Virus record (IMG/VR): IMGVR_UViG_3300025133_000020
Length of the DNA stretch: 64,000 nt
Source: a virus
Taxonomy: Duplodnaviria; Caudoviricetes
Reading direction: 5' to 3' (one strand)
Numbering within the stretch: position 1 is the stretch's first letter; each line of letters begins with the position of its first letter. Made by a program: the position numbers and the translations under genes. Below are positions 26,112 to 55,867 of this stretch, piece after piece. The notes below the pieces were generated by a model. The model saw only the letters and a list, made by a program, of their open reading frames with translations. It was not told the DNA's origin and did not search any database.

Positions 26112-26810
26112 TTATTTAACTTTATTATTATTCTTATACTCTACTAATTTAGGTATTATTAAGTCTAAGTAAAGTTTAAATTCTAATTCATTCATCATAC
26201 CTTTAAACGAATTTATAGCGTATGACGCTAATACCACATTATTTTTAGTGTACCCTAACATGGGGTCTAATCGCTCAACACTTATACTATCAAATTGGTG
26301 GCATCCTTCGTTATGTTTAATCTCAACATTAGTATAATAACATTTATGATTTTGTTTAAGTAAAGTCTCGTATAAAAAGGTTTTAGGTAGGTTAAATTCT
26401 AACCCCATTCTTTCCGACTTCCTTTTCAAGCCTGACGTTTTATTCCTGAGATAAACTTCTAAGCTAGTTTTTAATAATTTGGATTTCTTTTTGTACCCAC
26501 GTTTCACCGAATCATAATTACTAAAACACCCTTTACAACATTTTTGGTAGCCATCGAAGGTGCTTCTATTTTTAGAGAATTCCGACAACTCTTTGCGTTG
26601 TTTACACTTAAAACATTTCTTTTTACCGTCTATAATTGATTTACATATATGTTTCCGTTTGGCTTCCCTAAATCGTTTGTTAGCTTTCACCCCACAATCA
26701 GAACAAACACATACCACTGGTTTTTTACTACCGTATGTTAAACCACTAACAACATAACCAAATTCTTCAGTTGTTTCCTTTTCTTGTATTATCCATTGCC
26801 CATAACTCAT
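26112..26810 (-). mobile_element. Free-standing HNH/His-Cys-type endonuclease gene
   Basis: CxxC pairs plus CYYT...SISVERLDPMLGYTKNNVVLASYAINSFKG; own promoter. Confidence 0.7.
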
Positions 26811-26869: not shown

Positions 26870-27490
26870 CTATCGGTGACCTGTTGAACCGAAGCCACCG
26901 TCACCTCTATCGGTTTCGGTATTTATTTCATCGACACGATTCAATTTTATTATATTGGATGCTGTCACCGTAGCAACAACTCCTTGCGCAATTCTATCAC
27001 CATTGTTGATAAGGAACGCTTCCCTACCATGATTGATAAGGATTACCTTTAATTCACCTCTATAATCAGCGTCTATCGTACCAGGAGTATTAAGTACGGT
27101 TACACCTTTTTTAGCGGCTAATCCACTTCTAGGTCTTACTTGAATTTCAAACCCAGTCGGGATTTCGAAAAACAAACCTGTAGGTATTACTTTGAACTCA
27201 CCTACTTCTATAATTTCTTCACCCACTAAGTTAGCACGTAGGTCAAAGCCAGAAGACCCAGCAGTTTCATACTGTGGGTCTGTGTTATCTGATTCGTTCT
27301 TAAATGGTACTGAAATCTTTTGTATCTCAGTTACCTGTGGTGCGTTGATTTGGTACCACTTTTCGAAATCGAATGGTTCTGGTTCCGATTCAACACCATC
27401 TTTAACTAAATCTTTAAAGTAGTCTGGAATGGAGGCATCCCCCATTCCGAACCACTTCTTAAAATAGTCTTTGTTTTCTTTATCAGGCAT
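26870..27490 (-). CDS. dut: Trimeric dUTPase with N-terminal extension
   Basis: GSSGFDL, VRPRSGL, GTIDADYRGE, RIAQG, RGDGGFGSTG. Confidence 0.96.
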   Translation of the reverse strand: MPDKENKDYFKKWFGMGDASIPDYFKDLVKDGVESEPEPFDFEKWYQINAPQVTEIQKISVPFKNESDNTDPQYETAGSSGFDLRANLVGEEIIEVGEFKVIPTGLFFEIPTGFEIQVRPRSGLAAKKGVTVLNTPGTIDADYRGELKVILINHGREAFLINNGDRIAQGVVATVTASNIIKLNRVDEINTETDRGDGGFGSTGHR

Positions 27491-28058
27491 ACTCCAATAA
27501 TCTTTTCTTCTCTTCCATTATTGCTAGGTCACTGGCTTGGCTCAGTATGATACCTAACGTGTTAGTATGGAACCTTGCTTGTTTATCATCGTCCGTTTTA
27601 TCGTAGTTGATAATAGCTTGGTATTCATCGTCCGTAAACCGAACACCGTTATCCACAGCATACTTTATTGAACGCTCACCCACGTGTAGCGCCACAAGGT
27701 CGTTAGCGAACTCATACATTTGCCCTAACTTATCTTTATGCCATTGTGATGTGTTCTCAAGGAACATAAACGTCTTACCAATCTGGAATAAGCATGCTAC
27801 CTTTACAACAGACGCTAATGGTTGTTGCATATCTTCTGGTAGTATTTCATTTAGCTTACAAGCGTAATACGTAGTTCTAAGCGTGTGGTCTATTAGACCA
27901 CCTTTGAACGCATTGTAAGAATCCAGTTTTGTTGTAGCGGGTGCAGCTATGATGTCGGCACCTAAGAAGTTCATTAACTCTTCGGTCATGAACTCATACT
28001 TTTCACCAGTATTAAAATACTTGGTGGCATTAGATTTGATTTTCTCTTCTGTTAACAT
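27483..28058 (-). CDS. YhaM-like HD-fold protein, HD replaced by FQ
   Basis: GGLIDHTL, ACLFQIGK, ERS, QAI..D. Confidence 0.65.
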   Translation of the reverse strand: MLTEEKIKSNATKYFNTGEKYEFMTEELMNFLGADIIAAPATTKLDSYNAFKGGLIDHTLRTTYYACKLNEILPEDMQQPLASVVKVACLFQIGKTFMFLENTSQWHKDKLGQMYEFANDLVALHVGERSIKYAVDNGVRFTDDEYQAIINYDKTDDDKQARFHTNTLGIILSQASDLAIMEEKKRLLEYA

Positions 28059-28124: not shown

Positions 28125-29399
28125 TTATGCAGGTTCTTTAATTGCTTCTACTACTTCTGTTAACTTAGTCATGTATAATTCTCGCCTTGTATCTGAGGTA
28201 CTATCAGTGCTGTATGTATCCTTAACAGTCTCATATAGATTATTAGCCAATAGCTCAACCTTTTCTGGGTTCTGAATTAGGAACTTGATGTGTTGGTACC
28301 ATTGTTTGTGGTTCTTGTTCGTATCCACCAATAAAGCGTTAGCCTCATCATTATACCCACCACCATATTCTCTAGCATTCGTTAGGTCAATAGTGTAAGG
28401 ACCGAAATCCTGAGCAATAATAGCCTTCTTATGGAAACCAGATTCAATCACCTTCAATTGGCTCTTAACCTTATTGAACATATTCGTGTACAACGGAGCT
28501 AATGAAATATCAAATAGGTTATAGTTGGATGCGTAGCTTGTGATAGGCTTCGTCCAAACCCTTCTATACGGTTCATTATCAACATTTTCATAGACACTAT
28601 TAACCTTAAACTTATGAAGGAAATCCTTATATTCTGGACTCACAATCTTGAAGTTATCCGTGAATATCTTTTCATACTCATACCATACACTCTCTTGCGG
28701 TTGTATAGGTCTCTGAGATTGCTGACCAGTTTTCTCATCGATTGTAGTCACATTACCTCTAAGGTCGTAACCACATAGCACGAATTGTACTTTGTCCAAT
28801 AACCCGTCAGATTTTACCTTTTGTACTACACCTTTCAATAATTTAAGGTCTTCCAAGTGGGAGCTACCACCCAACCATCCGATTCTTAGTCGTTTGGATT
28901 CAATTGGTTTTGGTGTGTATTGTTTTTCGTTGGGGTCGATAGCATTCGGGATAACATAGATGTTATCATTCATCCTATCCATCTCTTTAGCGAAGATGTC
29001 GGTAGTTGTGATAATATTTCTAGCGTGTTTAAGGTTGCTGGCAATCTTCTTATCCAACTTAGACTGAATTATCAGTTTATGTGCTGGATGATGTGTTCCT
29101 GGTGCCCAGTGGTCATCTACATCCATGAAACTAAGAATATTAAGCTCATCCAACCGTTCCAGTAATTTCTCCATCCCGTCATAATCACCTAACGTTCTAT
29201 GGTAATGAACTAAGTCAAACCCTTTTAACCATTCGTCTGATTTAAGGTCTGGTTCGTATTCAATTTCTACGTGAAAATCATCTGGATATTTTTTTTCCAG
29301 TGAAATATGGGGTTTAGTAGAGCGAAAATATGAGACGCCAGTGCGGTCAGATGGTACTACTAAAACTTTAATTTTTCTATTTAAGGGGTTTACTATCAT
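28125..29399 (-). CDS. GT-B glycosyltransferase
   Basis: DVDDHW, IPNAID, IGWLGGSSHLEDL, DISLAPL, KSQLKVIESG. Confidence 0.85.
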   Translation of the reverse strand: MIVNPLNRKIKVLVVPSDRTGVSYFRSTKPHISLEKKYPDDFHVEIEYEPDLKSDEWLKGFDLVHYHRTLGDYDGMEKLLERLDELNILSFMDVDDHWAPGTHHPAHKLIIQSKLDKKIASNLKHARNIITTTDIFAKEMDRMNDNIYVIPNAIDPNEKQYTPKPIESKRLRIGWLGGSSHLEDLKLLKGVVQKVKSDGLLDKVQFVLCGYDLRGNVTTIDEKTGQQSQRPIQPQESVWYEYEKIFTDNFKIVSPEYKDFLHKFKVNSVYENVDNEPYRRVWTKPITSYASNYNLFDISLAPLYTNMFNKVKSQLKVIESGFHKKAIIAQDFGPYTIDLTNAREYGGGYNDEANALLVDTNKNHKQWYQHIKFLIQNPEKVELLANNLYETVKDTYSTDSTSDTRRELYMTKLTEVVEAIKEPA

Positions 29400-30120
29400 A
29401 TCTATTTATTATTTCTTTTATTATCATTATACCGTTTTGCTTGTAATCGGTTTCCCATATTACTTCACAATGGTAACCATTTTTTTTTCCTAAGTAAAGC
29501 TTATCCTTATCGTATTCCCAAATTTCTTTAGCTGACTTATTTTTTTTCTTATTTACATAAGTCTCGGAATATTTGTTAGGGTTACAATGCCAATAATCAC
29601 CATTATATTCAATCAATAAGTTAAATTCAGGAATGTAAATATCAAAAATTTTACCTTCCACTATATGGTTACCATTGGCTTCAATATTGATACTACCCAA
29701 ATAATTAAGTATTTCATCCTCAGCTTTAGACCTATTATACCCCTTTATCTCCCCATTATTGATACGGCTCTTCATTAATTCACTCAACTTGAGTCGTGTG
29801 TTTTCCATCTTACCACTAGCCCATAGTTTAGTTTTCATATCACTAAACATTTTGCGATATTTAGGTTCTGACATGTGAGCACTATTAGTGTGACCACTTT
29901 TACTAATCGATATAGCTATTTTTGTTTTTTCAGTGTGTCGCTTATTATAAAATGGGTTACCCTCACCTATTTGTAACTTTAACGAACAAGGTTTACAGAT
30001 ATTCTTTTTCTTTAAATTACGTTTTAACGCCCATTCACTACTTGCTGAACACTCAATATCTGTATTACAACTATTACAAATCCAGTTACCATACCATCTA
30101 TTATTAACCTCTCTAATCAT
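29377..30120 (-). mobile_element. Homing-type endonuclease: Zn finger, NUMOD3, Vsr/DUF559-like nuclease
   Basis: CxxC pairs, GEGNPFYNKRHTEKTK, FDIYIPEFNLLIEYNGDYWH, VIWE. Confidence 0.8.
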
Positions 30121-30132
30121 AATACGTTTTTA

Positions 30133-30141
30133 ATTAAATAT
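30133..30141 (-). promoter_or_regulatory. Putative late promoter ATATTTAAT
   Basis: Upstream of endonuclease ATG. Confidence 0.55.
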
Positions 30142-30161
30142 GTGCCAACGTACTAAAAGTC

Positions 30162-30236
30162 TTAGTAACTTACTCCCGTTCTGTCGCTCGGTACGACCAG
30201 AACTTTAACTTTTCTTCCTAATGGGTTCTTTATCAT
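30162..30236 (-). pseudogene. Stranded original 5' end of the downstream glycosyltransferase (24 codons)
   Basis: MIKNPLGRKVKVLVVPSDRTGVSY* versus MIVNPLNRKIKVLVVPSDRTGVSY at 29399. Confidence 0.9.
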
Positions 30237-30252
30237 GATATCAATTATGTGG

Positions 30253-30283
30253 TAAATCTAATGATACTGAAGTTATAAGTAAA
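30253..30283 (-). promoter_or_regulatory. Promoter TTTACT-N17-TAGATTTA
   Basis: Sits before the stranded 5' end, i.e. probably the original GT promoter. Confidence 0.6.
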
Positions 30284-30293
30284 GTTAATCCAT

Positions 30294-30320
30294 AAAAAAA
30301 GGGGCTTTCGCCCCACTTTT
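30294..30320 (-). terminator. Intrinsic terminator
   Basis: GGGGC-GAAA-GCCCC followed by T7. Confidence 0.85.
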
Positions 30321-30344
30321 AATACTTCGTTACCTATATTAACC

Positions 30345-31028
30345 TTATTTTTTAGGTATAATACCTTCCTTCATTAAGGTTGTTATGGTGTCTTTGATTG
30401 CTTGCTCTCTAATATTCTTGGTCATAATAGTCATCATCTCATCCCGTACCATATCCCTAATCATATTTTCAGACATTTTAACCGTCTTTGGTGCTTGCGC
30501 TGGAACCTGCTCGTTCAATTGTTGTCTTGATTGTAATGGTCTCCCTTTTGATGCTGGTTTTGCTGATGTGCCTGCGTAATCCATAAGGTCAGTTCTGACA
30601 TTCTTCATAGCATCCTCACTAAGAGGTACCACTGGGGCATCAGTAGACGTTGGGAATTGCTTCATAGCTTTCTTAACCGCATCTGGCATACCAGAGTTAT
30701 CAACTAATGCATCCGTAATCGGTCCTGCAATCGCTGGTTTAGGTGCTTGAGTTTGTGGTTGCATCATTTGTTGCTCTCTAATGTGAGGTGGCAACTCTTC
30801 CAAATAGTTAATATCTGGTGCTGGTTGATATTTTTGTTTAGCCCCTGCAACTGAGTCACCCATTGTTTGGGTTGAATTCGAATTACGTGGCGCTAATGGT
30901 TCGTTACGCATACCTGTACCAACATTCTTTGCTTTCTCAGCAGCAAATTGGTCAGCAGCAATCATTACATCACGGCTTTCACTTAGTTTAGTTAAAAATG
31001 ATAAAGGTACGTCTGTTAATTGTTCCAT
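30345..31028 (-). CDS. Low-complexity (P/A/Q) hypothetical protein
   Basis: 227-aa ORF in late operon. Confidence 0.7.
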   Translation of the reverse strand: MEQLTDVPLSFLTKLSESRDVMIAADQFAAEKAKNVGTGMRNEPLAPRNSNSTQTMGDSVAGAKQKYQPAPDINYLEELPPHIREQQMMQPQTQAPKPAIAGPITDALVDNSGMPDAVKKAMKQFPTSTDAPVVPLSEDAMKNVRTDLMDYAGTSAKPASKGRPLQSRQQLNEQVPAQAPKTVKMSENMIRDMVRDEMMTIMTKNIREQAIKDTITTLMKEGIIPKK

Positions 31029-54781: not shown

Positions 54782-55867
54782 ATGACTAAAACGATAAAAT
54801 TTGTAAATGAGTGTAAAGCTATATTTGGTGAAGAATACGATTACAGTAAAGTAGAATATACCAATCTTAAAACTAAAGTGGAAATTGTGTGTCCCACACA
54901 CGGCTCCTTTCATAAAACGCCACATCATCATAAAATTAGAAAACAAGGGTGTCCTAAATGTTCTAATGCAATTAAAAGTAAAAACAATACCAAGACCACC
55001 GAGAAATTCATAAAACAATCAATAGTGGTACATGGTGATAGATACGATTATTCAAAGGTTGCATACGAACATGCTAAACGTAAAGTGAGTATTATATGTC
55101 CAAAACACGGAGAATTCAGACAAACACCAGATAATCATTTACAAGGTAATAATTGCCCCAAATGCGTTGGTAAGTCTATGACTAATGAAGATATATTGAT
55201 TAAATTTAATGAAACTCATAGTAATAAGTATGATTATTCTAATGTATATTATGTTAACGGTAAAACTAAAGTTAAAATTATATGTCCAGAACATGGAGAA
55301 TTCAAGCAGTTGCCATACCCACACATAAATGGTCAAGGTTGTCCACGTTGCTTTGGACTAAACAAAACCAACGAGATTTTCATTAACGATTCCAAATTAA
55401 TTCATGGTGATAGATACGATTACTCCAAAATAGAATACATTAATAATAAATGTAAGGTTATTATTAAATGTCCAGAACATGGAGAATTCAAACAAACACC
55501 AAATATGCATCTACAGGGTAATGGTTGTCCTACTTGTAAAGAATCGGTAGGTGAGAAATTAGTGAGAGGTTACCTGATATGTAACAATATTAATTTTAGT
55601 CCCCAACATTCATTCAACGAATGTAAAAATGTTTGTGCTTTACCTTTTGACTTCTATTTACCAGAATATAATGTTTGTATTGAATATGATGGCATTCAAC
55701 ATTTTAAACCAATATCGTTTTTCGGTGGTATCGGAGGATTCAATAATAGGAAGCGTAACGATAACATTAAAAATAGGTTTTGTGAAAATAATAACATCGA
55801 TTTACTCCGAATACCCTATGATTCGGATGTGTTTGAATCGTTGAGTAACTTTTTTACCAATAAATAA
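54782..55867 (+). mobile_element. Endonuclease with tandem DUF723-like Zn modules and Vsr/DUF559-like nuclease
   Basis: Repeated YDYSKVxY...ICPxHGEFxQxPxxHxxGxGCPxC; PFDFYLPEYNVCIEYDGIQHF; inverted relative to neighbours. Confidence 0.85.

Follow-up and report, generated by a model that had tools for sequence, protein, structure and literature searches.

A homing-endonuclease cassette and a recoded second gene start at a glycosyltransferase locus of a marine jumbo phage

How can a phage gene stay whole when a homing endonuclease has settled inside its coding sequence and neither an intron nor an intein is at hand to remove it? This question is raised by a glycosyltransferase (GT) locus from a marine metagenomic jumbo phage (IMG/VR record IMGVR_UViG_3300025133_000020), of which a stretch of 64,000 nucleotides (nt), referred to here as the window, was analyzed. 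The features of this locus lie on the minus strand. The functional GT gene (28125..29399) encodes a GT-B/GT4-like protein of 424 amino acids (aa) that matches a PHROG glycosyltransferase (7e-37) and, weakly, the Pfam family Glyco_transf_4; from about codon 32 onward it is native to the window's lineage. The start of this gene overlaps by 23 nt the end of a gene for a predicted free-standing homing endonuclease (29377..30120, 247 aa), the GT ATG being placed within the last 23 nt of the nuclease gene. Upstream of the nuclease lies a 24-codon open reading frame (ORF), the stub (30162..30236), which corresponds to the old GT 5' end (codons 1 to 24) and is closed by a TAA that is also the first triplet of the cassette. 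A cassette-side copy of the same 24 codons (29328..29399) forms the start of the functional gene. The original prediction, made from the letters of the window, had read this arrangement as an endonuclease cassette that replaces the 5' end of its target gene with a synonymously recoded copy; stub, nuclease, and GT with overlapping ATG were found at matching coordinates in the sequence and in the ORF list. The observation was confirmed, and its interpretation is largely supported by the data presented here. We consider it probable that a homing-endonuclease cassette entered an uninterrupted GT gene at codon 24/25 and restored this gene with a recoded start of its own.

The stub and the start of the functional GT gene share 21 of 24 residues and 48 of 72 nt (~67% DNA identity). 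Ten of the final 12 codons are spelled differently, in every case synonymously (the differences include AGC/TCT, AGA/CGC, and AGT/TCA), and 16 of 36 nt are identical; recounting the residues and codons gave the figures that had been reported originally. The match is far beyond chance, since E values of 1e-7 (tblastn of the GT against the window) and 9e-11 (the stub finding the GT start) were obtained. With respect to the closest relatives that lack the nuclease, namely, the loci L040 and L041, the stub is identical at 58/72 and 61/72 nt (81 to 85%), whereas the functional GT start is identical at only 52/72 and 49/72 nt, respectively. When codons 9 to 24 were compared, the nearest neighbors of the stub were L041 (0.85) and L040 (0.81), and those of the new copy were distant lineages. 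At the nucleotide level, the stub is the native GT start of the recipient lineage.

A scan of viral contigs with the GT returned 25 loci (L001 to L025). The site was readable in 24 of these; 23 have no nuclease, and one (L018) contains one. Most of the nuclease-less loci show the order upstream gene, GT, downstream gene. The closest nuclease-less relatives were retrieved by a protein search, and their GTs are 84% (L040) and 79% (L041) identical in aa sequence to that of the window. In both, the GT follows immediately on a terminator and a TTTACT promoter-like site arranged as in the window, and the stub-type spelling continues straight into TTC AGA AGY ACN AAR (FRSTK). The expectation that relatives without the nuclease carry the old 5' end joined directly to FRSTKPH was thus borne out in the closest ones, and the recoded version was not seen in these two nearest relatives. 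These alleles indicate that the ancestral GT gene was uninterrupted. A nucleotide search of a phage collection revealed no close relative of the window, and a protein search of the same collection retrieved only distant GTs.

About 60 distinct GT alleles were gathered by nuclease searches and with a degenerate DNA pattern. The layout of stub, nuclease, and new start recurs in six further lineages (L026/27/28/88, L044/45/71, L054/60, L081, L083, and L085), and in all of them the stub stops right after codon 24. The left end of the window's cassette (30121..30164) consists of a junction box, TAAGACTTTT (30164-30155), and a ATATTTAA box (30141-30134), followed by the nuclease ATG; the junction between the stub and this ATG measures 41 nt. 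The left junction is homologous in the six lineages, with TWARAYTTTT present in 5/6 and a diverged version in L044. In all six, an ATATTT box is found a few bases 5' of the nuclease ATG, as ATATTTAW in five and as ATATTTCT in L044. A late promoter had been proposed at this position. What stands of this claim is the ATATTTAA box, conserved before the ATG across cassettes, but the box is not enriched in the window, and a promoter role is putative. ATATTTAW as a general phage promoter was rejected: its 29 copies in the window, on both strands, are close to the base-composition expectation (our own estimate), and we treat the box as conserved in the cassette only. The inverted repeat TACTAA-N5-TTAGTA (30151..30167), which had been taken to mark the junction, does exist but was judged to be a chance occurrence and rejected as a junction mark. 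It comprises 6 AT-rich base pairs (bp), it is absent from the homologous junctions of the six other lineages, and the junction region folds no better than shuffled sequences (z = 0.02). In L018, L029, L051, L057, and other loci, a nuclease homologue is situated between the promoter and the GT, and there is no stub. This order of promoter, nuclease, and GT probably predates the form with a stub, which would have been derived from it by a one-sided repair event. The arrangement of the window was also found in a second marine sample from another study (run X2), the contigs of which are identical over 29114-29567 and 29540-30973 and cover the GT start, the nuclease, the junction, the stub, and the promoter.

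Most nuclease-bearing relatives carry a short insert in the GT copy that lies 3' of the nuclease, and the window represents a rare form without it. In 25 distinct insert variants, the break in this copy falls precisely between codons 23 and 24 and consists of 5, 6, 7, 8, 11, or 12 nt that begin with TGA, TAA, or TAG. The insert ends with a codon synonymous to the one preceding the stop (AGY...AGY or GGY...GGN) in 22 of the 25 variants, and the downstream frame of the insert alleles encodes the conserved YFRS..PH, with no start codon nearby. Gly21 is encoded by GGG in 28/35 insert alleles versus 1/25 others, and this codon belongs to a strong hairpin with a 3' arm that ends just before the take-off codon (z scores of -2.7 to -5.8 in L026, L044, L054, and L029). 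Both the insert and the hairpin (z = +0.6) are absent from the new GT start of the window. The inserts are associated with the presence of a nuclease (Fisher p = 4e-5); ten alleles have an insert and no nuclease, so that the nuclease was probably lost and the gap kept. By analogy with the T4 mobA/gene 60 cassette, we consider the stop-first inserts to be probable short ribosomal hops, and alleles without them are referred to as hop-less. Inserts are found at L026:3760-3800, L029:1614-1650, L008:4034-4070, and ~35 further loci (L042 to L092).

Additional features were noted in individual relatives. In L091 (positions 1510-1792, compared with L005:3959-4006), all that is left of the nuclease gene is its final ~96 codons, which separate the promoter from the GT start; there is no stub, and a recoded tract in codons 14 to 28 is retained despite the truncation. 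In L026 (3130-3165), as well as in L027, L028, and L088, the nuclease is frameshifted in a G8/A-run region, which reflects either decay or a homopolymer sequencing error common to these related assemblies. Furthermore, the GT of L026 (4290-5380) contains an intein-like insert of ~360 aa at the GWLGGS/SHL motif, and such inserts are also present in L042, L044, and L054; the same gene has thus been struck by two kinds of selfish element.

The silent recoding that had been described for the GT 5' end of the window is real, but the recoded tract is longer than the 24 duplicated codons and reaches approximately codon 31. In codons 1 to 36, 20 changes are private to the window, compared with 9 for L040 and 8 for L041; the respective numbers for codons 37 to 200 are 46, 35, and 58 (Fisher p = 0.02 for the two segments). 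The excess is located in codons 13 to 31 (29307..29363), codons 1 to 12 being ordinary (4, 4, and 3 changes in the window, L040, and L041, respectively). The tract consequently crosses the codon 24/25 junction, runs ~7 codons past the duplication, and spans both the presumed nuclease target and the insertion point. It contains switches of codon family, from AGY to TCN for Ser and from AGA to CGC for Arg, at codons 17, 19, 26, and 27, in addition to wobble changes. Similar switches were observed in pairs of sister alleles. L091 and its ~90%-identical nuclease-less sister L005 show 14 differences that are crowded into codons 14 to 28 and include Ser17 AGC to TCA, Arg19 AGA to CGT, Arg26 AGA to CGC, and Ser27 AGC to TCC, and the hop-less L085 differs from the hop-bearing L081 in Arg19 (AGA to CGT) and Arg26-Ser27 (AGA AGT to CGT TCT). 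CGY-TCY at codons 26 and 27 was found in 4/4 hop-less nuclease-bearing alleles (the window, L018, L085, and L091) versus 16/56 others (p ~0.01, uncorrected for ancestry). The nuclease of L085 shares 78% identity with its L081 counterpart but only 58% with the window protein, so that the link between the missing insert and CGY-TCY is not simply due to one inherited tract. Since the excess of changes is localized and the switches recur in sister pairs, it is plausible that the silent changes confer immunity to the nuclease. Most likely, the recoded tract travels with the cassette and is not created on insertion, as judged by analogy with the divergent homologous region (HomR) of the T4 MobA element.

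The nuclease against which such immunity would be directed has an N-terminal part with a zinc ribbon and NUMOD3 and a Vsr-like/EDxHD catalytic domain. NUMOD3 is matched at residues 52 to 71 with 22 bits (cutoff, 20.4), and the PHROG matches are homing endonuclease families; a PDB sequence search with the nuclease returned nothing useful. In an alignment of 30 nuclease homologues, D160, E171, G174, D175, H178, N180, P181, and D204 are invariant, the conservation of catalytic residues being judged from this alignment. An AlphaFold (AF2) model built on the 30-homologue alignment has a predicted local distance difference test (pLDDT) value of 87. In Foldseek, its C-terminal domain matched the catalytic domain of I-Bth0305I (3r3p_A; TMt 0.72, prob 1.00, 26% identity), and the model matched Vsr of Escherichia coli (1cw0/1vsr; TMt 0.58 to 0.60). 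On the basis of the fold match to 3r3p and Vsr, the invariant residues, and NUMOD3, the protein is assigned to the EDxHD/Vsr-like homing endonuclease family, in agreement with the NUMOD3/Vsr-like nuclease named in the original prediction.

We propose that a free-standing cassette of ~860 bp (about 29307 to 30164) entered the GT gene at codon 24/25. It would have brought with it the short left junction with the ATATTTAA box, the Vsr-like/EDxHD nuclease gene, and its own GT codons 1 to ~31. The promoter and codons 1 to 24 of the recipient would have been stranded upstream as a dead-end ORF of 24 codons, the stub then being merely a by-product, and the GT would now be translated from the start codon of the cassette. 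Because the cassette supplies the GT start, the gene would stay whole without an intron or intein. Both the inserts and the recoding are centered on codons 23 to 25, and the insertion boundaries are clean in the comparison of L091 with L005. We infer that cleavage takes place in this region, the presumed target being the conserved coding stretch ...PSDRTGVSYFRS..., which the duplicated start would recreate at the right junction. In the window, the recreated site would be disguised by about 16 to 20 silent changes in codons 13 to 31, among them four Ser/Arg codon-family switches. In most related cassettes, it would instead be split by the stop-first insert of 5 to 12 nt that ribosomes probably hop. 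A need for either many changes or an insert fits the report that I-Bth0305I tolerates most single substitutions (PMC3239194). The cassette may be mobile at present. A broader proposition is that a single cassette family guards its rebuilt target in two interchangeable ways, by hop or by recoding, and constitutes a second, independent system of the mobA/gene 60 kind; the hop would be driven in most members by the hairpin that ends just before the take-off codon, and the window, L085, and L091 would have re-spelled the Ser/Arg codons on either side of the cut, which would have arisen more than once. We regard the chances of this proposition, with these two parts included, as evenly balanced. If it is true, the window serves as a natural control: the hop would be there to provide nuclease immunity, and silent recoding would be able to take its place.

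A number of points weigh against the proposed cleavage and protection. Cleavage, immunity, and homing are all deduced from comparisons of sequences, and the p values are modest and uncorrected for shared ancestry. A metagenome scan with the nuclease retrieved no near-identical nuclease or donor allele (best full-length match, ~62%; best partial match, 76%). No joint that skips the nuclease and no nuclease-less variant were seen in the contigs of four marine runs, which is uninformative either way; runs with a small share gave only short fragments in this contig comparison. The nucleases of the window and of L054 do not possess the ~45-aa N-terminal helix-turn-helix of most homologues (291 to 315 aa). 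In the window, the activity of the enzyme could be reduced or lost, and immunity would then be unnecessary. TCN and CGN at the recoded codons also occur in nuclease-less and hop-bearing alleles of the wider family, so that this spelling is within natural variation and may simply be that of the donor. In T4, the polymorphisms of the MobA element alone failed to block nicking (10.1101/2022.08.31.505936).

The alternative that survives best accepts the cassette and the replacement start as real and explains the silent differences by neutral hitch-hiking, namely, co-conversion from a divergent donor, resistance being incidental or nonexistent. It can draw on the T4 precedent, in which the HomR polymorphisms gave no protection on their own (10.1101/2022.08.31.505936), and on the codon families at Ser17, Arg19, Arg26, and Ser27, which vary freely among nuclease-less alleles. 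Moreover, the identity between the stub and the new copy in the last 12 codons spans 20/36 to 32/36 among cassettes, and the nearest neighbors of the new copy are other lineages at ~80%, as would be the case for a foreign segment. However, the excess divergence is restricted to the codons around the insertion point, and codons 1 to 12 are no more diverged than in the sisters. Passive transfer also leaves aside that all four hop-less nuclease-bearing alleles share CGY-TCY and that the switch between L085 and L081 tracks the absence of the hop, a repeated association given the relatedness of the nucleases involved. We therefore hold pure hitch-hiking to be possible but doubtful. The recoded spelling itself is natural variation, either put to use or carried along, and not designed.

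Loss of nuclease activity may also have turned the recoded tract into a fossil of a past invasion that has no present role, with the nuclease as a relic, decaying or domesticated, that has lost its cutting activity. The missing helix-turn-helix is in line with this idea, relatives often have a truncated or frameshifted nuclease (L091, L046/64, L062, L070, L073, and L026), and MobA itself is a pseudogene in T4 (10.1101/2022.08.31.505936). In the window, however, the ORF is intact, all invariant catalytic residues and the NUMOD3/zinc-ribbon part are kept, and the AF2 model is a confident one; in addition, L054 pairs the same short nuclease form with an intact cassette. A relic is thus unlikely at this locus.

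Entry of a cassette into an uninterrupted gene, the reading that we prefer, was also weighed against inheritance from an ancient ancestor. In a maximum-likelihood tree of GT residues 24 to 173, the window is part of a clade (support, 98/94) with the nuclease-less L001, L040, and L041. On this tree, nuclease presence requires many changes, and the four hop-less nuclease-bearing alleles are found at four separate places. The distribution of the nuclease is patchy and nonvertical, pointing to horizontal spread. Were the arrangement ancient and vertical instead, L040 and L041 would have lost the nuclease precisely, and the stub would have been kept for a function, e.g., as a leader peptide governing expression of the nuclease or the GT. 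Nuclease homologues that are 35 to 63% identical do precede the GT in distant lineages, which implies an old association. The ATG and the frame of the stub are intact in seven lineages, and some lineages have only a few bases between the end of the stub ORF and the nuclease ATG, which would permit translational coupling. Yet the window nests among nuclease-less alleles, so that several precise losses would be required, and its stub is closer to L040 and L041 than to other stubs, as would be expected if every invasion creates a new stub out of the recipient's gene. Furthermore, L091, with its truncated nuclease, and the nuclease-less L005 show ~90% DNA identity on either side of a clean 283-nt replacement. 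Vertical descent is accordingly very unlikely in our judgment.

We give practically no credence to, and reject, an intron made up of the junction, the nuclease, and the second start, with the stub as the first exon at which the enzyme begins: the stub does end at a codon boundary and homing endonucleases of the EDxHD family are often intron borne (PMC3239194), but no Rfam intron family was matched in 28900-30500, even at E values up to 1, a stop codon directly follows the stub, no stable fold is formed around the junction, and the copy further downstream starts at an ATG of its own and encodes the entire conserved N terminus, which is constrained at the protein level. The claim of an insertion without intron or intein was upheld in this respect, as the nuclease showed no self-splicing RNA match and has its own start and stop in a frame different from that of the GT.

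The genes that flank the locus are conserved. The upstream gene (30345..31028, minus strand, 227 aa, no family match) is the left neighbor of the GT in nuclease-less relatives, and its homologues are found directly 5' of the GT in L001 to L010, L040, and L041. Its intrinsic terminator (30294..30314, minus strand) is formed by GGGGC-GAAA-GCCCC and a T run, with the hairpin at 30314-30301, and L040 and L041 have an equivalent hairpin with a T run at the same place. The adjacent promoter-like site (30255..30283, minus strand; TTTACT-N17-TAGATT), now 5' of the stub, may be the original GT promoter. It occupies the same position in the nuclease-less L040 and L041, and the TTTACT box and the spacing are kept in L040, L041, and L008; a sigma-70 scan gave no more sites than were found in shuffled sequences. 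The downstream gene (27483..28058, minus strand, 191 aa) is the conserved right neighbor.

Two other ORFs of the window resemble endonuclease genes. The first (26112-26810, minus strand, 232 aa) is free-standing, matches the PHROG endonuclease VII/HNH category (E = 2e-21), and is situated between a dUTPase gene and a gene of 93 aa. Because these two genes are adjacent in L040 (7504/7512), the 232-aa ORF represents another insertion. The second (54782-55867, plus strand, 361 aa) has four zinc-ribbon repeats of the type CPxHGxF...GCPxC and a C-terminal FDFYLPE..IEYDG motif that resembles the core of a Vsr-type nuclease; it is a candidate for a third homing endonuclease in the window.

Homing endonucleases inside genes had been regarded as tolerable only with the help of an intron, an intein, or a split that leaves the gene functional, and the T4 MobA element, which combines a replacement segment with a ribosomal hop of 50 nt, was long treated as unique. 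The present locus suggests a simpler solution, in which the element brings a re-spelled gene start and leaves the old one behind, so that the invaded and the invading alleles are both visible in one genome. Its relatives form a graded natural series at a single 30-bp site: uninterrupted and presumably sensitive, putatively hop-protected, putatively recoding-protected, and with the nuclease lost. Two questions thereby become testable, namely, how much silent change is needed to defeat an EDxHD nuclease and whether hops are maintained for nuclease immunity. The locus is also a warning for annotation, since short ORFs that duplicate gene starts can be part of a working arrangement, as can seemingly broken genes adjacent to a nuclease.

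Mitochondrial mobile ORFs, to which the original prediction pointed, provide one comparison, in that they repair their insertion with an element-borne copy of the displaced gene end. They replace 3' ends, to which they are fused in frame, whereas here the 5' end is concerned and the nuclease is a separate ORF. Our literature search on mitochondrial gene-end replacement returned only general mitogenome papers. With I-Bth0305I and the EDxHD family (Taylor et al., 2011, PMC3239194; Dassa et al., 2009, PMC2677866), the window nuclease shares the Vsr-like fold of the C-terminal domain, conserved acidic and His residues, N-terminal modules of the NUMOD type, and the phage setting. It differs from I-Bth0305I in being free-standing and not intron or intein borne, in its ~26% identity to 3r3p over the domain, and in having NUMOD3 and a Cys-rich ribbon in place of two NUMOD2 motifs. 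A further comparison is with the free-standing Seg and Mob endonucleases of T-even phages and with MobE, which splits nrdA in phage Aeh1, as outlined in a preprint (10.1101/2022.08.31.505936). There, the nuclease gene likewise lies beside or inside its target, spread occurs by double-strand-break repair with flanking co-conversion, and sequence differences shield the resident allele, as would be the case in the window. The target gene in those systems either remains untouched or is divided into two pieces that both function; in the window, it would be remade whole by a duplicated, re-spelled start.

The closest parallel is the T4 MobA/gene 60 cassette (Bonocora 2011, as cited and extended in Manning and Atkins, bioRxiv 10.1101/2022.08.31.505936), in which the element relies on the gap to keep the target that it has rebuilt from being cut. 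In both systems, a free-standing homing endonuclease resides inside a conserved phage ORF, and closely related genomes are without the element. Both elements encode a new start and a divergent homologous region (67 to 81% DNA identity for HomR; ~67% over 24 codons in the window), the new ORF and the end of the nuclease gene overlap in different frames, and the nucleases are often pseudogenized. The stop-first gap with matched take-off and landing codons beside the target is a likeness restricted to the window's relatives. The window nuclease is Vsr-like/EDxHD, whereas MobA is an HNH enzyme, and the target is a glycosyltransferase and not a topoisomerase. The insertion is so near the 5' end that the element's copy completes the downstream ORF; the upstream piece is a redundant stub of 24 codons, unlike the functional subunit with a C-terminal extension in T4, and the parental region is kept and not deleted. 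The window has no bypass gap, and the gaps of its relatives measure 5 to 12 nt and not 50 nt. The arrangement thus departs from the MobA type in its full duplicated start, its retained stub, the Vsr-like type of its nuclease, and the use of recoding where a hop would otherwise be found.

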